From positions 1-64,000 of IMG/VR virus record IMGVR_UViG_3300044723_001152: a stretch of DNA of 64,000 bases, one strand, 5' to 3'. Both the position numbers and the translations under genes were made by a program. Below are positions 582 to 40,814 of the stretch, one piece after another; the stretch's first letter is position 1, and each line of letters starts with the position of its first letter. Source of the stretch: a virus. Lineage: Duplodnaviria > Caudoviricetes. The notes under the pieces were generated by a model. It saw nothing but the letters and a program-made list of their open reading frames with translations, did no database searches and had not been told where the DNA came from.

Positions 582-1172
582 CTATTTATATCCTATTTTC
601 TTTAAGTCTGATATTACTTGTGGTGTCGACTTATAGAGTATAGGTTGACCTTTCGCCTGTTTCCATTCAGTAGTATTCTTTTTGAAATCATCAATTAGAA
701 CATTACCCTTAGCATATACCCGTTTTTGGTCTCTACGGACTATATGTATCCTCTCTTTATCCGTCAGTTTTAGGTTCCTCTGTAACCACAACCTCTTACC
801 CTTTATACTGTTTAAATCGTATGGTGTGTAGGCTGATAGTATGTGTGGATTAAACTTACGAATGAATGACCATAACTTCATGCCACCTGGTGTCCAGGGT
901 AGAGTTGGCCAAAATAACTTGTATTGATTGACTGGTTCCCATTTCTGCGCCTTGTTAGGAGCTGATAACCAGTCTTCAGCGTCAGAATACCCGGACATCT
1001 GCATTGGTCCAGGTTCTGACGGATTCTTTGATTTCAGGTTAAACATGTTGGCAATACCTCTGTTGAAATCACAGAGCACACCGTCCATATCACAATAGAT
1101 AGTTGGGAGACCGTCTTGTTCTTGGACTAATGTTATGCCACGAATAGTCTCCGCTAGTGCGGAGTATCTCAT
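582..1172 (-). CDS. HAD-superfamily phosphatase, 5'(3')-deoxyribonucleotidase (NT5C)-like
   Basis: Motif I DMDGVLCDF, HILSA (motif II), K in GKRLWL, and motif IV LIDD. Confidence 0.85.
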   Translation of the reverse strand: MRYSALAETIRGITLVQEQDGLPTIYCDMDGVLCDFNRGIANMFNLKSKNPSEPGPMQMSGYSDAEDWLSAPNKAQKWEPVNQYKLFWPTLPWTPGGMKLWSFIRKFNPHILSAYTPYDLNSIKGKRLWLQRNLKLTDKERIHIVRRDQKRVYAKGNVLIDDFKKNTTEWKQAKGQPILYKSTPQVISDLKKIGYK

Positions 1173-3409: not shown

Positions 3410-3760
3410 CTAATTGTCAACTTTAGATCCTGCTCGCCATTGGTAGCATGACCAATACCCTGCGGTCGTCTTATCTTTCTTCTGGTCGCAATTGTGCCTC
3501 GCACGGAAAGATGCTCTCGCTCCTGGGTCGTCTCTCTTAATACTCATGTTAGGGTCACCAAAATTAACCTTGACTACGTTACCCTTCTTGTTCTTCACAT
3601 ACACGTGGAACTTAGAATTACCACCACTAGAACGGATTGGGTCATTTAGATTTACCTTCTTGCCCTGGTATTCTGCTTCCTGTATACCTTCCTTCTCATG
3701 TTCATATACCATCATCTCGCAAACATTGTCTATATGTTCAACTTCTTTTCTAGTTTTCAT
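3410..3760 (-). CDS. Conserved phage hypothetical protein (FRARHxC...YWSC motif)
   Basis: 116 aa; FGDPNMSIKRDDPGARASFRARHNC...AGYWSCYQW resembles a motif I recall from large phages. Confidence 0.7.
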   Translation of the reverse strand: MKTRKEVEHIDNVCEMMVYEHEKEGIQEAEYQGKKVNLNDPIRSSGGNSKFHVYVKNKKGNVVKVNFGDPNMSIKRDDPGARASFRARHNCDQKKDKTTAGYWSCYQWRAGSKVDN

Positions 3761-3761
3761 C

Positions 3762-5765
3762 TTATTTCCCTTTTACTTTTGAAGCCAAGTCTTTATCTGC
3801 CTTGCCCCAAGTTCCACTTGATTTTGTTACGAAACTGTTAACACGAGCCATACCCCATTGTTGTGGAGTTGTGCCTGGTCTGTGTCCAGTTCTCCATGCG
3901 GCCATGCCTCTGTTATATACCTTCATCAATACACCATATGGCATCCCTGATTTGGCTGCCTTCTTCTTAACACCCTCGTTCTCTGATAGTAACTCATCGA
4001 ACATCTCAGATACGGTCTTGTCCAGGTATAACCTGTAATCTGTACCATACTCGTCCTTATACTGTTCGATTGTCTCACTTTCCTCTGACCAAAATTTGAT
4101 ATCCTTAATCTCCTGTTCGACATCTTCGCCAAACTTCTTCTTAAATGCCATTGTGTGTTTAGATGGTTTAGTCTTAGCGTCAGCATCTCCTGGTGCGGGT
4201 TTGTATGCCGCAGGGTTATCATCGTCCATCTTCGCACCTTTTGTAAAGTGTCTGTCCCTGGAAACTTTTGTCGATTTCTTTAGACCCTTATAATATACGT
4301 CTGGTTGTGTGCCAGGTCTATTTTTGATATCTGGATCTTGCCCTGTCTCTTTCTTTCTCTCATCATCTTTACTCTCTGCTTTGATGGTAGCACCATAATA
4401 GTTTTTCATATCTATGGCAAATTTATTGAGGTCTTCACCTTTACCATCTATTCTAAAACTTTTTCTATCGCTCATCTTATCAATTCTAAAACCTGTTTTC
4501 TTACCAAATCTTTTTATATCGTCCATCGCCTTACGTCTTTTTACTGGATCTTTAATGGTAACTATCATCTTTTTAAATTCATCAAGTTCCACTTCTTCAA
4601 ACTTCTGGAACTTTCTATTACCAACTAACTTACCATAGTCTCTTACCTGACCTGGTGTTTGTATGTTGAATGTTCTCATCGTCTTAATCTGGTCTGCCTT
4701 ATCTGGTCCCTGTGTCCAATTATCAATGTCCTTGATAGCAGGTTGCCCTGGTGTGGTCACTGGTAACTTACGTTCTTTCTTCTTTGCCTTCTCTGTCTCT
4801 TTCTGTTCATCATCAACATGCTTCTTTTGTTTATCCTTGGCGTTGTTGATTTCTTCATCGAAAGTTGAGAATGTCTTCAACGTCTCGCTATTCTTTTGTA
4901 GTACCAACTTCTTCTTATCAACGTTCTCTGTCTGTAACTCTGTGTCGATAGATTGTGCGGGTTGAATATCATCTAGGAATGCTTTCTGTATCCCACCATC
5001 TTCCATCTCGTATTGGACGTAATTTGGTCCTCGTTTAATAATCGTTCCAACATTACCACTTGGCTTGTGTTCAACTGTCTCACCCATCAGGTATATCTCG
5101 TTGTTGTGGTATTGTTCTCTTATATCTTTCAATTCCTCATTATCACTTGGGGCAAGTATTTCTTCATTCACACCCATCCCATTTTTTAAATCTTTAAATA
5201 ATTTCATGGCGTCATTCTCCTTGGTGCCTGCGATAAGTCCTGCTCTGAAACTTTTGAAGTCATTCTTCATAGCGTAATCCCTCATTTTACTGGCACTCAT
5301 TCCTTTCGCACCAGTGGCGTCTGGGTCTCTACCCCCAGCACTCACTACTTCAACCGTATCAAAGTTATAGTCCTTACCTTTATATTTGTTAATCAATGTC
5401 TTAAATTCTGCGACCCTATCACTACCTGCGACCATATAGACATCAGTATATTTCTTATCAAATCTATTTTTCAATATTTCCATGAATGTTCTTTCACGTC
5501 CTGTCGCTGGTAAAATTTGTATGCCTACTGGATACATCTTTTTCAGATAGTCAATCTTTTGTTTTACACTCAATGGATTCTTCTTACGATCCTGAGTGGC
5601 ACTCACATATAGCACGGGCAAACCTTTTGCCCTCTTTGCCACTGTGATAACTCTGTCAATGAGACGTTGGTGACCTATCGTAGGTGGATTCATACGACCA
5701 AAAGCAAACACCACTGTCTGTTTTCGTCCTACGTCTTTTCTCAATAGTTCCTTTAACGTCTTCAT
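3762..5765 (-). CDS. HIGH-motif nucleotidyltransferase (NadD/cytidylyltransferase-like) fused to several C-terminal modules
   Basis: FGRMNPPTIGH (TxGH), VAGSDR and MSASKMR (KMSKS-like) lie in the first ~200 aa. An SH3/KOW-like segment and a C-terminal RGMAAWRTGHRPG...WGMARVNSF module follow. Confidence 0.8.
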   Translation of the reverse strand: MKTLKELLRKDVGRKQTVVFAFGRMNPPTIGHQRLIDRVITVAKRAKGLPVLYVSATQDRKKNPLSVKQKIDYLKKMYPVGIQILPATGRERTFMEILKNRFDKKYTDVYMVAGSDRVAEFKTLINKYKGKDYNFDTVEVVSAGGRDPDATGAKGMSASKMRDYAMKNDFKSFRAGLIAGTKENDAMKLFKDLKNGMGVNEEILAPSDNEELKDIREQYHNNEIYLMGETVEHKPSGNVGTIIKRGPNYVQYEMEDGGIQKAFLDDIQPAQSIDTELQTENVDKKKLVLQKNSETLKTFSTFDEEINNAKDKQKKHVDDEQKETEKAKKKERKLPVTTPGQPAIKDIDNWTQGPDKADQIKTMRTFNIQTPGQVRDYGKLVGNRKFQKFEEVELDEFKKMIVTIKDPVKRRKAMDDIKRFGKKTGFRIDKMSDRKSFRIDGKGEDLNKFAIDMKNYYGATIKAESKDDERKKETGQDPDIKNRPGTQPDVYYKGLKKSTKVSRDRHFTKGAKMDDDNPAAYKPAPGDADAKTKPSKHTMAFKKKFGEDVEQEIKDIKFWSEESETIEQYKDEYGTDYRLYLDKTVSEMFDELLSENEGVKKKAAKSGMPYGVLMKVYNRGMAAWRTGHRPGTTPQQWGMARVNSFVTKSSGTWGKADKDLASKVKGK

Positions 5766-6838
5766 TTTTTCTTACTCATTTCCTTGTAGCCTTTTAATCT
5801 ACTCTTTTCTTTTCTACCCCTATTCTTAGAGGCGTCTTCAAAACCCACGATGTCCTTACCTTTGTGTGACGCATCTTTGCCATCACCATTTCCGTAAGTA
5901 CCCTTGTCTCTATTATATTGTACCAACTGTTTGCGATACTCTATACGTTCTGGTGATGATTGAAACTTCTTGTATTCTCTCTTATAGTCTCTCTCTGCTT
6001 TCTCACCAATAGGTGTTGTTAGTCTAACCTTCTTATCTTCACCCTTAGCCCGTTGTAAGTCAGTGGCACTTGGTGCCCCTTTCTCACCAGGTTTTCTCAT
6101 TCTCTTGCCACTCGCTTTTCTTTTACGAATATTATGCCAGAGACCTTTTCCTTTTTCAGATATAGTCATTTCTTCCCTCATTTGTTTCTTTTCTAATTCT
6201 CTTTTTATCCACATTTTTGCTGTGTAATTTGTTATAGGTTGTTTCACTATCTTACGAACCATCTTATAAGATTTTTCTAATATATCATCATTTGATTTAT
6301 TATTATCAATCACAATAAAGTTTTTCATACCAAATAGTCTTTGTAGTTTTCCCATATTTGCTTGTATTTCTGAATGACTTTTTTTTACGATATCATCAGG
6401 AACTGTTCTATTTCTTTTGGTATTTCTTGTTAACGCAACATCTAAACTTGTATTCACAAATATCATATAACAATCATAACCTAATCTTTTTAATCCTCGT
6501 AAACCTATTTCAATTTTTTTTGTATCTCTTGCTGTACTATCAATAACTAATCCTAATCTACCTTTAATATACAATTCTAAACTTTTAGCAGTTAATTCTT
6601 TCGACTTTAATCGCAATCTATCTCTCTTATCTTGTTCACTAGATGGCATGTCTAAAGATAAACCTGCTTTCTTTAATGCGTTTTCAAAGGGAGTGTCTGA
6701 ATTAACATTCTTTAATCCTAGACCTGGTGTTATTCTTTGATTAACATAAGTCTTACCAGAACCTGGACCACCAGCAAGAAAGAATGCCTTGAAGATACCT
6801 GGGTCATATAAACCTTCCTTGATAATAAATCTTTCCAT
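5762..6838 (-). CDS. P-loop kinase (zeta-toxin/AAA_33-like) with basic and HNH-like C-terminal modules
   Basis: Walker A AGGPGSGKT, LVIDST Walker B, and YMIFVNTSLDVALTRNTKR lid. The C-terminus reads GDGKDASH...SKNRGR. Its stop overlaps the start of the nucleotidyltransferase gene. Confidence 0.8.
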   Translation of the reverse strand: MERFIIKEGLYDPGIFKAFFLAGGPGSGKTYVNQRITPGLGLKNVNSDTPFENALKKAGLSLDMPSSEQDKRDRLRLKSKELTAKSLELYIKGRLGLVIDSTARDTKKIEIGLRGLKRLGYDCYMIFVNTSLDVALTRNTKRNRTVPDDIVKKSHSEIQANMGKLQRLFGMKNFIVIDNNKSNDDILEKSYKMVRKIVKQPITNYTAKMWIKRELEKKQMREEMTISEKGKGLWHNIRKRKASGKRMRKPGEKGAPSATDLQRAKGEDKKVRLTTPIGEKAERDYKREYKKFQSSPERIEYRKQLVQYNRDKGTYGNGDGKDASHKGKDIVGFEDASKNRGRKEKSRLKGYKEMSKKK

Positions 6839-6841
6839 TGA

Positions 6842-7555
6842 TTATACCCGCATTGTCCTTGGATTATCTAATATGATTAAATCAAATATTGCACCAGCAC
6901 CTGTTGTTGCGCCTGCTTTAATTCTTACTTCTAAATCTGTCTTTTCATCAAATTCTAATGGTACAGGATATTCGTATGTTACAGGACCACCAGATGAACC
7001 AAATTTACCTTTAATATTAAAAGCACCATTTTCTGGTTTTGCCAAAAATTCAAACTCACATTCTTTTGCTTTTTCTAAATTGCCTTGAAATTTAATTAGA
7101 TATCCTTTTTTACCAGCAGGAATTGTATATAATGCCATAAGTGTTTGACCTTTGCCTGCAAGTATTTGTGCGGCAGTTTTACTATCTGCTGTTATTGTGA
7201 GAACACCCACATTTGATGAACCTGTATTTGCTGTTAATAATACTGCTCTAAATATTCTAAAAAATTCTACTGATCCAGCAGAACCACCTATTGTTAAAGT
7301 TTCTGAAACTTCGTTGTAACTAGCATCCAATCCTGACACTAAAACTGTACCATCATTATCTGAACTTGTATCACTTGAAGTGACTTGTGCTGTGCCAGCG
7401 CTAGAAATATAAGTATAAACATTTGAAGCGTCTATAACACTTTCAAAACTGGTGCCTACTGTTGGATTGTATCCAAACTTATTAATATGACTTACGCCTC
7501 TAACAAGACCTCTTGCAATCTGAAAATTTTGTTCGTTAATATATCCTACAGTCAT
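6842..7555 (-). CDS. Hypothetical beta-rich protein, probably virion-associated
   Basis: 237 aa, S/T/G-rich with predicted beta character; lies in a late operon. Confidence 0.6.
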   Translation of the reverse strand: MTVGYINEQNFQIARGLVRGVSHINKFGYNPTVGTSFESVIDASNVYTYISSAGTAQVTSSDTSSDNDGTVLVSGLDASYNEVSETLTIGGSAGSVEFFRIFRAVLLTANTGSSNVGVLTITADSKTAAQILAGKGQTLMALYTIPAGKKGYLIKFQGNLEKAKECEFEFLAKPENGAFNIKGKFGSSGGPVTYEYPVPLEFDEKTDLEVRIKAGATTGAGAIFDLIILDNPRTMRV

Positions 7556-8790
7556 TATCCTTTAGCCCAATTCTTAGCCGCGGTGAAATTTTGAATAGAA
7601 AACTCTAATCTATCGACCAATTTAACTGCCTTACCATTCTTATCAACTGCCACATACCCCTCTGGGTTTGTCGCCTTTAAACCATTGCCGTCTCTCTTAA
7701 ATGTGCCTATACTCTTTGCCTTGTTCAACTTGTCTATGATAACCTTCTTGGCTCTCTGTAGAGATTTATATGTGGCACATGCCATGTATATACTCGTGTT
7801 GTGGTCATCTATAAATTTTAGACCATTGTCCTGTATCGTCTTGTATTTCTCTTTTGACTTCTCTGTCTTTACCTTATCTATCTCTTTCTGTGTTCTCGTT
7901 TCGAAAAACTCTCTGAAAGCATTCGCTGTCTCTTTTGTGGAAGGTAAATCACTAGAGGCACGGATATAACTGTTGAGATATGCCTTGAGTTGGACACCAA
8001 TAGATAGTGTGTTCTTTTCTGTTTTGATTTTGTTGAGTAGTTCTTTACCCTGTTTGAGACTACCACTCGCCATGTTCAGTATCTTTTGTAGTGATTGACT
8101 TTCACCAATCGTCATCAATGAGTTACCAGATACGTCCTTATAACTTGCGTCATCGAACCATACCTTTGGACTACGTCTCAACTTCTTAACGTTGGCTCCA
8201 AACTTCGCCGTCATCTTATCAAAACTACTGCCCTTGTATGTCGTGTGGAAAACTATACCTAACTTACTACTCGCAATCTTCTTACCAAATGGTGTATTCT
8301 CTGGCACCATGTAAACGATAGTGTTAGGTTGGAATGAAATCATTTGCTCAGACTTACCACTACCATCTTTATATGTGGTCGTCTTCTTACCAGATGATGT
8401 GAACATCAAATCACCCTGTAGTATCTCTTTTATGCCTAGTGATGGTAGATATTCCAAACACTCACGGAGGATATTCTGTAACTCACCCTGGTGATTGTTT
8501 CGTATATCTTGTATCGTGTAATTAACTTTTGGAGTTTTGTTGAATACTGCCTTGGTGCCCACGAAAAATTTACCATTCTCTGGTGATGGACCACAAACTA
8601 TGGCAGGCGCACCGTCCCACTTGACGGATACGTTGACACCCTTACTGGCATTACCAGATAACATGTCTTTTAGTGACGATAGGAAGTTGATGGCATTTAA
8701 CCCACCCTCATATCCATTGTTGATTATATCGTCTTCCGCATGTTCTAAATGCGTGTTCTTATCTTCTTGTAGGTCTATCATAACTCCCAT
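7555..8790 (-). CDS. DUF6267-like protein with ATP-dependent ligase/capping (covalent nucleotidyltransferase) motifs
   Basis: KWDG (motif I, aa 57-60), ILQGDL (III), IVFHT (IIIa), EGYV (IV), VKLVDR (V); N-terminal KNTHLEH. Late promoter at 8808-8814. Confidence 0.7.
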   Translation of the reverse strand: MGVMIDLQEDKNTHLEHAEDDIINNGYEGGLNAINFLSSLKDMLSGNASKGVNVSVKWDGAPAIVCGPSPENGKFFVGTKAVFNKTPKVNYTIQDIRNNHQGELQNILRECLEYLPSLGIKEILQGDLMFTSSGKKTTTYKDGSGKSEQMISFQPNTIVYMVPENTPFGKKIASSKLGIVFHTTYKGSSFDKMTAKFGANVKKLRRSPKVWFDDASYKDVSGNSLMTIGESQSLQKILNMASGSLKQGKELLNKIKTEKNTLSIGVQLKAYLNSYIRASSDLPSTKETANAFREFFETRTQKEIDKVKTEKSKEKYKTIQDNGLKFIDDHNTSIYMACATYKSLQRAKKVIIDKLNKAKSIGTFKRDGNGLKATNPEGYVAVDKNGKAVKLVDRLEFSIQNFTAAKNWAKG

Positions 8791-8807
8791 TTATATACTA
8801 AAATAAC

Positions 8808-8814
8808 TATTTAG
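8808..8814 (-). promoter_or_regulatory. gp55 late promoter variant
   Basis: CTAAATA upstream of the ligase-like gene cluster. Confidence 0.65.
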
Positions 8815-9065
8815 TCAAGCAAGAAGTCTGGTATGCCTCCATTTATTGCCCACACTTGATTTTTATTGTGAAAATCTGCCAATTCCTTGGCTTTCTCACG
8901 GAAATCAAACACCGCAACTGTTCTATCTTTGTTCTCAACGACAGCAAACTTATACTTACCGTCTCGTCTCTTAGTCTTTACAGAATACTCAATACTTGAA
9001 GTCTTGGAACTTCTTGTACTTTTCTTCTGGACTTTCTTCCGTTTCTTTAAGGTTATGTTCGACAT
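8811..9065 (-). CDS. Small hypothetical protein overlapping the end of gp41
   Basis: 84-aa ORF with 77-bp overlap; fills the gap between gp41 and the late promoter. Confidence 0.5.
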   Translation of the reverse strand: MSNITLKKRKKVQKKSTRSSKTSSIEYSVKTKRRDGKYKFAVVENKDRTVAVFDFREKAKELADFHNKNQVWAINGGIPDFLLD

Positions 9066-10392
9066 ATTTTTCCTGTTTTGGTTGTATTAAGTTTTGTGCC
9101 TGTTGTTCGATATCAAATAGTTTCATTCTACTTCTATCAACACCAATGATAAACTTACGATTTACTGTTGGGTCATTGTATCTGTTCTTCAACTGTTTGA
9201 CTAACATCTGACCCGCTCGTTCTAATTCTTCACTACTGATTAGGGCAAACATAAAGTCTGCCGTCGCAGGAAGACCAAAGGACTCTGACGTATCTTCGAG
9301 CCCGATGTCTGTTGAAACAAAACCAGTTCTGGTTGTTTGTGTCGCTGTTACGATTGGCACATCTAGTTCTACAGCCAGACCTCTGAGTTCTTCAGCGATT
9401 GCCTTGATGTAGGTATAACTATTCACATTCGCACCTGGTTTAAATCTACTTGACGCACATATATTGATGTAGTCGATGAAGATTAGGTCTGGTTTAAATG
9501 TTCTCTTTAGTGCCAACTCATTGACCAATGCTCTGTAGTGGTTCGCACCCGCACTCGCCGTTGGATATTCTTTGATGATTAATGTGCCTGTCGTCTTACT
9601 CTGTAAAGTTTTTATCTTGTCATTGAATAGTTTTCTATTCAACATGTGTAAATCTTCCATGGAGATACCAAGTAGGTTTGCGTCTATACGTTCAGCGATA
9701 CGTTCCTCTGCCATCTCCATTGTGATATACAATACATTCTTATTCTGTGATAAGGCACTCGCAGCCTGATGACACATAAAAAGAGTTTTACCAACACCAG
9801 TACCCGCTAACGCAACGTTTAACGTCTTCGTTGGCAACCCACCCTTTGTGACTTTGTTGAAATAATCTAAATCAAATGGTACCCTATTCTCTTTCTTGTG
9901 GTAGAAATCAAATCTGGATTCTATATCAAGTAAATAATCATGCCCCACATTCCTATCGAAAGAAACAGATAGAGCGTCACGGAGTATCTCAGGGATCGCC
10001 TCTGGTTGTTTGTTCTTATCTTTACCATCTAGTATATGTATGCCATCCATGACGGCATTATGTACCGCACGGTCTTTACAAAACTTCTCTGTAGTGTTTG
10101 TGAGCCAATCTAGGTCTATCTCTTCCTTGTTCAACGTAGAGATTAAATCAACGATCCTCTTGTATTCTTCCTCATTGAGGTCTTTACGTTTACCAATATC
10201 AATCTCTAAAGTTTCTCTGGTAGGTCTCTTATTATATTGGTCGATAAACTTCTGGATCTCAGTAAATAGAATCCTCTCACTACGGTCTTCGAAGTATTCT
10301 GGTTTCAGAAAGGGCAATACCTTTCTGGTATAATCTTCGTTATGTAGTAAGTTCTTTAGGGCTGTCTTCTCTATTCGTTCCGCTGTTACCAT
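8989..10392 (-). CDS. gp41: DnaB-like replicative helicase
   Basis: Walker A AGTGVGKT, YITMEMAEERIAERIDAN, IFIDYINI, ESFGLPATAD, KQLKNRY. Confidence 0.97.
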   Translation of the reverse strand: MVTAERIEKTALKNLLHNEDYTRKVLPFLKPEYFEDRSERILFTEIQKFIDQYNKRPTRETLEIDIGKRKDLNEEEYKRIVDLISTLNKEEIDLDWLTNTTEKFCKDRAVHNAVMDGIHILDGKDKNKQPEAIPEILRDALSVSFDRNVGHDYLLDIESRFDFYHKKENRVPFDLDYFNKVTKGGLPTKTLNVALAGTGVGKTLFMCHQAASALSQNKNVLYITMEMAEERIAERIDANLLGISMEDLHMLNRKLFNDKIKTLQSKTTGTLIIKEYPTASAGANHYRALVNELALKRTFKPDLIFIDYINICASSRFKPGANVNSYTYIKAIAEELRGLAVELDVPIVTATQTTRTGFVSTDIGLEDTSESFGLPATADFMFALISSEELERAGQMLVKQLKNRYNDPTVNRKFIIGVDRSRMKLFDIEQQAQNLIQPKQEKYVEHNLKETEESPEEKYKKFQDFKY

Positions 10393-11862: not shown

Positions 11863-12987
11863 TTATCTAATTATCTGGATGTCCGCACCCTCGTGCCATA
11901 TCTCCAGTTCCCTCCTCACCATATCATTGACTATCAACTTTTTGTGTCTCTTGGTCGCCACCTTCTGCCACCACTTGATAACATTTTCAAAACTAAACTT
12001 ATCGTAGTGAAATCCTGGTTTGAGCGTATCTGTCTTACCCTGTATATATTCGGGTACATTTTCATACCCATAGTCTGAGGTATAAAATCTTTTCTTCTCT
12101 GTCAATGACTTTTTGTCCTCTAAGAATTTTACAAATTTACCATGTAGGTGTTCATTGTGTTTCTTCAATGACGCCTGTATTATATTTATCATGGCGTGGT
12201 GTGTCGTTAACTTACGACTACTTATACCATCCTTGACGATAGGTCCACCATTCTTCTCCTTGAACCAATTACTAATCTTCGTAAAACTATCACCATGTAA
12301 CATGGGTATAAAGTTACTCTCTGTCACACCTTTAAATCTCAGGTATGGTTTCATGCCATCATATTGACTTGATGACTTACTACTACCATATAGACTTGTT
12401 GTCTCAAATAGACATATGTTCGTTCCATACTTATCATCTATCAGTTTCTTTATCCTGTGACTACAACATATAGCAGCCAGTAACTTACCACCAAGGTAGT
12501 TGTAACCAAATGGTTGTGTTGGTACTATTGTGAAACCCATGATAGCGGCATGGTTAAATCTTTTCATCTCGTCCTTGTCCTGTGTCTTCAATGGTCTACC
12601 CAATAATTTATTCCTTGGTTTACTATTCATCATAGGACTACCAAAACGAATGAAACCCACTATCTTATCCGTGTTCGTCTCTTTGACTATTATTCGTATC
12701 GCCTTACCAGGTATGGATGCCATCGCTGTATGACTTGTAACCTTGTTTAGTATTCTCGTAAATGTATTGTTATCTATCTCCTGTATATCGAAGGACATAT
12801 CTTCTGGTGACATATCAAAGTTATCGAAGAAATCATCTTCATCTGCCATACCGGGTAGTTGAAATGGAAAGTCTTTTACTTGTTCTAATTTTTGTTCTTT
12901 GATATACTGGTCGATACGTTCAAACTGTGAGAAGTAATTTGTGAAGTATAACATCGCCCATTCAGCGTCCTGTTGATTAAGTAACAT
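11863..12987 (-). CDS. DUF4338 (Druantia DruA-like) domain protein
   Basis: VPTQPFGYNYLGGKLLAAICCSH and FETTSLYG...SQYDG match my recollection of DUF4338. Confidence 0.7.
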   Translation of the reverse strand: MLLNQQDAEWAMLYFTNYFSQFERIDQYIKEQKLEQVKDFPFQLPGMADEDDFFDNFDMSPEDMSFDIQEIDNNTFTRILNKVTSHTAMASIPGKAIRIIVKETNTDKIVGFIRFGSPMMNSKPRNKLLGRPLKTQDKDEMKRFNHAAIMGFTIVPTQPFGYNYLGGKLLAAICCSHRIKKLIDDKYGTNICLFETTSLYGSSKSSSQYDGMKPYLRFKGVTESNFIPMLHGDSFTKISNWFKEKNGGPIVKDGISSRKLTTHHAMINIIQASLKKHNEHLHGKFVKFLEDKKSLTEKKRFYTSDYGYENVPEYIQGKTDTLKPGFHYDKFSFENVIKWWQKVATKRHKKLIVNDMVRRELEIWHEGADIQIIR

Positions 12988-40154: not shown

Positions 40155-40161
40155 TATTTAT
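40155..40161 (-). promoter_or_regulatory. gp55 late promoter of gp22
   Basis: ATAAATA overlapping the gp21 stop. Confidence 0.65.
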
Positions 40162-40814
40162 CTTTTTGTTAATTTGTTCATAAAACTCTCAAAGGCATTT
40201 GCCTCTGCCGCAGCCTTACGTTGTCTAGTTTCACGCTCAATTTGTTCTTGTATTTCAGAAACATCTTGCTCTTTGATGATTCCGTTGTCCCAGATCCATT
40301 CTTTACCTTCCATTACGCCATTGACGAATGCTTGTGGTGCGGATGGATCCGCTACGATATCTGCGGCAGTTGCCAGGTAAAAATCACTTTTTACATAGTT
40401 CGTACCACCTTTATTCTCCAAAGAGCCCATGCCTCTGGAAGAAACTCCTAATTGTGCGCCTTCGTCTATCAAAGACTTCACAATCTTACCATATGGTGTG
40501 TCTGTAATCTTCGCTTCGCCTATATAATTACCCTTGTTATCACCCTCTAACTTAGTTATCAAGTGTGATACTCTCTCCAGATTTACAGTTGGACCGTCAG
40601 GATGCCCTAGTTCTCCAAATGCTCTCTTTCTCTGGACAAATTCTTTATTATATCTGCTTACTTCCTTCTCTAATACTTCTTGTGGGTATACACGGCCATT
40701 TCTATTCTTAATGTTGGCTTGCATGAAGATACCCTTTATCTTATGAGACTTCTTACCATTATCTTCTTCAACAATGTATTCTGCCTCGTTGATTTCTTCT
40801 CTAATTAGTTTCAT
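40158..40814 (-). CDS. gp21: Prohead protease
   Basis: GIFMQA, NGRVY, GELGHP, GVSSRG, DIVADPSA. Confidence 0.97.
   Translation of the reverse strand: MKLIREEINEAEYIVEEDNGKKSHKIKGIFMQANIKNRNGRVYPQEVLEKEVSRYNKEFVQRKRAFGELGHPDGPTVNLERVSHLITKLEGDNKGNYIGEAKITDTPYGKIVKSLIDEGAQLGVSSRGMGSLENKGGTNYVKSDFYLATAADIVADPSAPQAFVNGVMEGKEWIWDNGIIKEQDVSEIQEQIERETRQRKAAAEANAFESFMNKLTKR

Follow-up and report, generated by a model that had tools for sequence, protein, structure and literature searches.

P0001 is a predicted 411 amino acid (aa) protein of the DUF6267 family, encoded in a 64,000-nucleotide stretch of viral DNA that is called the window here (positions 1–64,000 of IMG/VR record IMGVR_UViG_3300044723_001152; Caudoviricetes). 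The structural model of P0001 suggests that DUF6267 is a divergent covalent (lysine-nucleoside monophosphate, NMP) nucleotidyltransferase of the polynucleotide ligase type, which would seal nucleic acid ends together with partners encoded in the same gene module; we give this reading a little better than an even chance. The ligase fold, the catalytic residues, and the kinase/nucleotidyltransferase module with its gene fusions indicate that the protein is probably an undescribed nucleic acid end-joining or adenylylating enzyme. In shape it appears closest to the ATP-dependent RNA ligases. The basis of the reading is the fold, the conserved residues, the linkage and the fusions; from these we infer adenylylation, the substrate and the roles of the partners.

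The P0001 sequence matches Pfam DUF6267 (PF19782) over profile positions 1–376 (E = 4.2e-132, 441.5 bits against a cut-off of 27) and phrog_455, which is annotated as “unknown function” (E = 7.6e-122). An AlphaFold2 model built from a 61-sequence alignment has a mean predicted local distance difference test (pLDDT) score of 90.4 and a predicted TM-score (pTM) of 0.86. The model displays two beta-rich parts at positions 53–214 and 362–391, an all-helical block at positions 228–356, and one short terminal helix at positions 394–403. There is no OB domain with motif VI in P0001; only the one helix follows motif V, and the chain ends 17 residues past R394. A first-pass annotation, made from the letters of this DNA, had proposed a ligase-type nucleotidyltransferase fold that has no OB domain, ends shortly after motif V and has a large helical insertion ahead of motif IV, and the model bears out each of these features.

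In an exhaustive VIA-align comparison of the model with 48,161 representative chains, ligases occupy 11 of the first 12 rows. RNA ligases are ranked above DNA ligases and no capping enzyme is found among the 50 best rows; the nearest structures are RNA ligases and not capping enzymes. The annotation had named AlphaFold with Foldseek as one check on its proposal. By Foldseek against the PDB there is no match at E ≤ 1e-3 and ligases are only scattered among the weak rows; this is probably due to the helical insert, which breaks the alignment. The model has the nucleotidyltransferase fold by which membership of the covalent nucleotidyltransferase superfamily is recognized. P0001 is thus supported, at the level of the model, as a ligase-fold protein with conserved covalent nucleotidyltransferase residues. 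A new ligase architecture could emerge from this, where the accessory domain is inserted inside the catalytic domain.

Conservation was analyzed in an alignment of 61 diverse homologues and in a second alignment with 150 cluster representatives of ≤50% pairwise identity (151 sequences). Residues K57, D59, G60, G126, D127, H182, T183, E377, G378, K390 and R394 are invariant in the first alignment, and each is present in at least 147 of the 151 sequences of the second. Further invariant positions are H14, H17 and E19 of the HLEHxED motif, F76, K80, F153, N156, Y160 and N273. The motif series goes beyond chance: the ordered pattern KxDG...G[DE]...EG[FYLIV]V...K occurs in 115 of 200,000 shuffles of P0001. 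In the model, K57 closes the strand at positions 53–57 and is followed by a loop and a strand at positions 63–68. The first-pass annotation had listed five ligase motifs in order, and all five strings (KWDG, ILQGDL, IVFHT, EGYV and VKLVDR) are located where it placed them. The order and the residues of motifs I, III and IV and the first lysine of motif V stand; motif V lacks the second lysine and motif IIIa has two candidates. FQPNT is found 26 aa after D127 and IVFHT 54 aa after it, and the former could be motif IIIa, as its spacing fits the usual ligase distance between motifs III and IIIa better.

Similarity to known ligases at the sequence level is slight. A PDB sequence search with P0001 alone finds nothing, and the 61-sequence profile finds coiled-coil noise and no ligase. 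When T4 Rnl1 or an alignment of 32 Rnl1 sequences is compared by hhalign, nothing beyond the PEGYVAVDKNGKAVKL/IEGYVAVMKDGSHFKI pair is aligned (E = 0.015–0.024), and motif I is still out of register with Rnl1 when the helical insert is left out. A Pfam scan of the 61 aligned members at E ≤ 10 shows one weak match to RNA_lig_T4_1 (PF09511, E = 6e-4) and nothing else of relevance. P0001 itself has no PF09511 match, and PF09414 and PF01068 have no match anywhere in the viral record. Since the similarity spans the motif IV–V stretch only, DUF6267 is placed outside PF09511, PF09414 and PF01068, as a separate family of the superfamily.

The gene neighborhood was compared in 80 IMG/VR loci whose DUF6267 proteins display 43–83% identity. 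Many of these loci are incomplete and the neighbor counts (Table 1) are therefore lower bounds. The genes have a fixed order on the same strand: UvsX, gp41, a small open reading frame, DUF6267, a P-loop kinase, a HIGH-type nucleotidyltransferase with DUF5824, orf116, orf506, orf223 and a HAD phosphatase. The HAD phosphatase gene is 4–7.7 kb downstream on the same strand in 19 of the 80 loci and about 0.7 kb downstream in one more. Phages HTVC008M, ACG-2014j, Syn9, DLP6, Melnitz, S-PM2 and S-SZBM1 are isolates with the same layout. The DUF6267 gene directly follows the gp43, UvsX and gp41 genes, and in every case it opens the conserved module, which is operon-like.

Fusions join the members of the module. 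Among the 150 representatives, 39 are at least 450 aa in length. Fusion of DUF6267 with the HIGH-type nucleotidyltransferase is found in at least eight representatives, in both orders; fusion with the kinase is found in one (P0255), as a single open reading frame on the scaffold DNA; and an orf116 homologue is fused N-terminally to DUF6267 in another (P0188). The description of the protein as stand-alone in the first-pass annotation is true of the P0001 gene product, but relatives are fused to the nucleotidyltransferase, the kinase or orf116, and the gene heads a module. In seven loci (L038, L069, L078, L080, L086, L090 and L092) the HIGH-type nucleotidyltransferase and the kinase are in one open reading frame.

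The modeled kinase domain of the window (residues 1–230, pLDDT 90.3) has as its best fold match the polynucleotide kinase of Clostridium thermocellum Pnkp (E = 1e-6, TM-score 0.67–0.70). Its best PDB sequence match is seryl-tRNA(Sec) kinase (PSTK), a tRNA-dependent enzyme (E = 1e-3). A ligase, a 5′-kinase and a HAD phosphatase are also the activities that T4 Rnl1 and Pnkp combine. The partner set plausibly supports an end-healing and sealing function, albeit by thin margins; the tRNA repair suggested in the first-pass annotation would be a putative use of it.

Related to possible function, the following scheme is proposed. The DUF6267 gene opens a conserved module found in marine T4-like phages (Kyanoviridae and relatives), and its product would work within this module. 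Lys57 of the KWDG motif would attack the alpha-phosphate of ATP or another nucleoside triphosphate to form an enzyme-NMP adduct, in a nucleotide pocket predicted to be lined by D127, E377, K390 and R394. The NMP would then be handed to a 5′-phosphate end, and attack by a 3′-OH would seal the break. The 130-aa helical domain before motif IV may hold the substrate, as the OB or C-terminal helical domains do in other ligases. The polynucleotide kinase-like P-loop kinase would make the 5′-phosphate, the HAD phosphatase would clear 3′ ends, and the module may thus be a kit for healing and sealing of broken RNA, possibly DNA. Such an enzyme could reveal how phages without gp30, Rnl1 or Rnl2 join nucleic acid ends.

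Several observations weigh against an end-sealing ligase. Motif III of DUF6267 has Asp where ligases usually have Glu, and P0001 has Val392 in place of the second lysine that ligases have in motif V; this lysine is essential in T4 Rnl1. The profile-profile alignment with the Rnl1 family covers 19 columns only (E = 0.015), and hhalign of DUF6267 with T4 Rnl2 gives nothing meaningful. In the fold comparison of the kinase, adenylate and other small-molecule kinases are barely behind the polynucleotide kinase, and T4 Pnkp is at rank 41. To our knowledge the HIGH-type nucleotidyltransferase, the tightest partner, has no role in RNA repair, which hints at nucleotide-cofactor chemistry.

The missing lysine, together with the failure of hidden Markov model methods to detect sequence homology to ligases, would also suit a catalytically dead ligase-fold protein that serves as a structural or scaffold part, or a motif match without functional meaning. 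This is very unlikely. The family comprises more than 2,600 clusters at 50% identity and keeps the predicted catalytic residues invariant throughout, and DUF6267 is unlisted among virion proteins where its neighbors are listed (PMC9146016; PMC3037559 supplement).

As the HIGH-type nucleotidyltransferase is outside the end-sealing scheme, small-molecule or cap chemistry is kept as a rival. Here DUF6267 would act with this enzyme and the kinase, and a phosphorylated small molecule would take over the AMP from the lysine. Nicotinamide mononucleotide, for instance, would yield NAD+ in a reversal of NAD-ligase step 1; alternatively, a dinucleotide cofactor would be placed on an RNA 5′ end. The phage would in this way restore NAD+ or tag RNA at an early stage of infection. 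The NMNAT/PPAT-like enzyme is the most frequent fusion partner and neighbor of DUF6267, and its fusion to the P-loop kinase in the seven loci is like NadR or CoA synthase. NMNAT with a kinase is the pairing of NadR, and PPAT with a kinase that of CoA synthase. We judge this chemistry improbable nonetheless: we know of no enzyme with the covalent nucleotidyltransferase fold that makes free dinucleotides, capping enzymes are missing from the 50 best structure rows, and by fold the kinase is best matched by a polynucleotide kinase instead of a nucleoside kinase. In its favor, the neighbor has been treated as an NMNAT homologue (PMC10665884, PMC9602691); the supplements of PMC9602691 contain nothing on the neighbors.

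DUF6267 is a phage family. The viral record that contains the window is 88 kb in length and has one DUF6267 copy and T4-type replication and head genes (gp41, UvsX, gp20, gp21, gp22 and gp23). The virus is a pelagimyophage, and its closest isolate by DUF6267 protein is Pelagibacter phage HTVC008M (75.5% identity). At E ≤ 1e-3, 2,643 clusters at 50% identity are found. The 471 phage records with DUF6267 are chiefly cyanomyoviruses; the family is also present in Methylophilales phage Melnitz. DUF6267 corresponds to T4-GC71, which is present in 16 of the 16 cyanomyoviruses in the comparison of Sullivan et al. (2010; PMC3037559 supplement). Its presence in all 16 cyanomyoviruses, in HTVC008M, in Melnitz and in thousands of metagenomic clusters places it among the commonest unannotated phage genes of sea water. 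No paper naming “DUF6267” was found in a literature search, NCBIfam has no family for it, and a search of the ESM Atlas by features gives unnamed viral clusters only. With a place among the ligases, a core gene so far labeled “hypothetical” becomes an enzyme whose predicted activity can be assayed directly.

DUF6267 was not found in 14 control cellular genomes. A species-genome collection gives 62 matches, nearly all on contigs of aquatic metagenome-assembled genomes (MAGs). The taxonomic labels of these contigs are scattered, and a cellular origin of the family is therefore rejected; the MAG matches are most simply mis-binned phage DNA. A rare match outside of MAGs is on a contig of Nonlabens xiamenensis 1Q3 (NZ_RMVE01000006.1), which at 188,235 bp is of T4-like phage scale and may represent a phage co-assembled with the isolate. 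Two natural short forms, P0216 and P0242, were set aside because they had the appearance of deletions or disrupted genes. In the S-PM2 record AJ630128.1 the DUF6267 homologue matches as two pieces (locus positions 4492–6271), which are annotated as a 193-aa hypothetical protein and the start of a “cytitidyltransferase” gene. The homologue is in one piece in the later record LN828717, and the two-piece form is likely a frameshift or sequencing difference.

Among the eight complete genomes with DUF6267, six (HTVC008M, ACG-2014j, Syn9, Melnitz, S-SZBM1 and S-PM2) give no hits with the ATP- or NAD-dependent DNA ligase families. There is no match to the Rnl2 family (PF09414) in HTVC008M, ACG-2014j and Syn9, and none to the Rnl1 family (PF09511) in HTVC008M, Syn9, DLP6, S-CRM01 and Melnitz. 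The missing matches suggest that DUF6267 may be the only ligase-fold protein of the six phages. DUF6267 could then be the replicative DNA ligase that replaces T4 gp30 and seals Okazaki fragments and recombination nicks. In addition to the six genomes, the location of the gene right after gp43, UvsX and gp41 and the presence of T4-GC71 in all 16 cyanomyoviruses (PMC3037559) are in accord with this, as is the remark in a review that certain marine cyanophages lack gp30, along with other genes (PMC2993671). However, DLP6 and S-CRM01 have a canonical ATP-dependent ligase (PF01068) beside DUF6267 (PMC5349666 and profile search), so DUF6267 is not simply a gp30 substitute. The ranking of RNA ligases above DNA ligases in the structure comparison and the missing OB domain also speak against a gp30 role. 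The linkage that is conserved joins the gene to those of the kinase and nucleotidyltransferase downstream, proteins that have been found in virions, and not to replisome genes; in S-CRM01 a terminator separates the replication genes from the DUF6267 gene. A gp30 role is thus considered unlikely, and end sealing with the module partners continues to be favored.

The true start of P0001 is probably the second ATG (position 8781, Met4), and one close relative starts with MIDLQEDKN. Transcription from the putative TATAAATG promoter, which overlaps the first ATG, would put the second ATG at or near the 5′ end of the mRNA. The window has 10 exact TATAAATA boxes, which resemble the T4 late promoter, and every one is on the minus strand; this is the coding strand of almost every window gene, and a count of 10 is not significant against 6.3 expected. 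Many DUF6267 proteins display a leader with the consensus M-K-[ST]-F-x-x-[FY]-[LI]-x-E directly N-terminal of the conserved core. The consensus resembles the targeting peptide MKTYQEFIAE, which was checked at the start of T4 ipII and ipIII.

Packaging of DUF6267 itself in the virion is possible judging by this leader, which is also present on some homologues of the nucleotidyltransferase, the kinase, orf116 and the HAD phosphatase. The kit of DUF6267, kinase, HIGH-type nucleotidyltransferase and HAD phosphatase might be loaded into the capsid by way of the T4-like leader, trimmed by gp21 and injected with the DNA. The neighboring nucleotidyltransferase has been found in purified virions of S-SZBM1 (gene 140; PMC9146016), S-CREM2 (ORF154-156; PMC10665884), and S-SCSM1 and S-CBWM1 (PMC9602691), and its cluster T4-GC190 has a virion “YES” flag in PMC3037559. 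Packaging of the whole kit is doubtful, however. The leader is no proof of packaging, since UvsX N-termini fit the strict leader pattern in 12 of 28 cases, and the leader of P0001 is the short form IDLQE only. S-SZBM1_141, a DUF6267 homologue, is missing from the list of virion proteins (PMC9146016), and T4-GC71 is without the structural “YES” flag that T4-GC190 has (PMC3037559 supplement). If the kit were packaged, repair of RNA or DNA breaks inflicted by the host, or restoration of a depleted cofactor, would begin before phage gene expression. This would be a pre-packaged counter-defense in the core gene set of the ocean's most abundant T4-like phages. The assignment of DUF6267 to the ligases could also reveal the purpose of the long-puzzling virion-associated “cytidyltransferase” of cyanophages.

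Other observations concern the module and its surroundings. A 237-aa phrog_8198 protein is encoded between DUF6267 and the kinase in the window (positions 6842–7555, minus strand). It is found in 2 of the 80 loci only and looks like an insertion into the module, not a part of it. The K/R-rich tail of the kinase, which is the C-terminal third (positions 5762–6150, minus strand), matches the small separate families phrog_6437 and phrog_16028. Homologous tail pieces are attached to other module genes in other loci; short modules seem to be shuffled among the module proteins. In S-CRM01 (locus positions 6676–9141) an 821-aa “serine/threonine kinase” is encoded next after DUF6267, in place of the usual kinase and nucleotidyltransferase pair. 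This protein is probably the S-CRM01 kinase that is noted in PMC10665884 as detected in virions. A 374-aa protein similar to Druantia DruA (PF14236, E = 4.3e-10) is encoded between the UvsX and DNA polymerase genes of the window (positions 11863–12987, minus strand).

Table 1. Coordinates of P0001, its motifs and related genes in the window, with the number of the 80 compared loci in which module genes are found
Feature	Position	Strand	Basis or remarks	Loci (of 80)
TATAAATG, 7/8 match to T4 late-promoter box, overlaps first ATG	8788..8795	(-)	Sequence; putative promoter	
DUF6267 gene (P0001), 411 aa	7555..8790	(-)	Open reading frame; Pfam PF19782; phrog_455; 50 top structure rows all ligases	
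N-terminal leader M(GVM)IDLQE, ends in (L/I)xE site right before folded core	8764..8790	(-)	Disordered in model, pLDDT 36	
HLEHxED motif (H14, H17, E19, D20)	8731..8751	(-)	Conservation, 150 representatives	
Motif I KWDG, residues 57–60; K57 predicted nucleotidyl-accepting lysine	8611..8622	(-)	K57, D59, G60 conserved	
Motif III ILQGDL, residues 123–128	8407..8424	(-)	G126, D127 conserved; strand 123–131	
FQPNT, residues 153–157, alternative motif IIIa	8320..8334	(-)	F153, N156 invariant	
IVFHT, residues 179–183, motif IIIa of first-pass annotation	8242..8256	(-)	Aromatic at 181, H182, T183 invariant; strand 177–186	
All-helical domain, residues 228–356, between motifs IIIa and IV	7723..8109	(-)	DSSP of model; invariant N273	
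Motif IV EGYV, residues 377–380	7651..7662	(-)	E377, G378 conserved; hhalign pairs PEGYVAVDKNGKAVKL with T4 Rnl1 IEGYVAVMKDGSHFKI	
Motif V VKLVDR, residues 389–394	7609..7626	(-)	K390, R394 conserved; E-to-K spacing 13, as T4 Rnl1 E227–K240	
P-loop kinase (AAA_33/Zeta_toxin), basic C-terminal tail	5762..6838	(-)	Pfam	at least 32
HIGH-type (cytidylyltransferase/NMNAT-like) nucleotidyltransferase with DUF5824	3762..5765	(-)	phrog_3041, E = 3e-151; DUF5824, E = 1.6e-19	at least 57 (DUF5824, at least 21)
orf116, 116-aa protein	3410..3760	(-)	Module member; homologue fused in P0188	at least 24
HAD-family NT5C-like phosphatase, distal module end	582..1172	(-)	Pfam NT5C, E = 1.8e-7	at least 20
gp21-type prohead protease	40158..40814	(-)	Peptidase_S77, E = 4e-32	

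Compared with known systems, DUF6267 differs from T4 Rnl2 and trypanosome REL1 (PF09414) in that it has neither a PF09414 match nor a C-terminal domain after motif V. With respect to the fungal tRNA ligase Trl1 (a ligase-kinase; PDB 6n67, 9r3w), the domain order is reversed in the comparison (kinase then ligase), no sequence-level homology was found, and the DUF6267 module has a separate HAD phosphatase instead of a cyclic phosphodiesterase domain. In bacterial Pnkp, of the Pnkp-Hen1 RNA repair system, the kinase domain is the best match of the window kinase; the phosphatase of the phage module is however of the HAD type and not a metallophosphoesterase, and Hen1 is not seen. The Pnkp ligase domain, which has helical embellishments of the nucleotidyltransferase core, is absent from the structure match lists of P0001. 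The nick-sealing RNA ligase of Naegleria gruberi (NgrRnl, PDB 5cot/5cou) shows 11–14% sequence identity to DUF6267. NgrRnl has an extra N-terminal domain, with the aligned part starting at residue 140, whereas DUF6267 is without this domain and has the large internal helical insert.

T4 Rnl1 (RnlA, gp63; PF09511) shares with DUF6267 the KxDG lysine motif, a near-identical EGYVAV..G...K stretch with the same 13-aa spacing, and an all-helical accessory domain. Unlike T4 Rnl1, where the helical domain is appended after motif V, DUF6267 has it before motif IV. DUF6267 also has Val in place of the second motif V lysine, and an N-terminal HLEH motif and leader. T4 Rnl1 acts with the kinase-phosphatase Pnkp in repair of cleaved tRNA.

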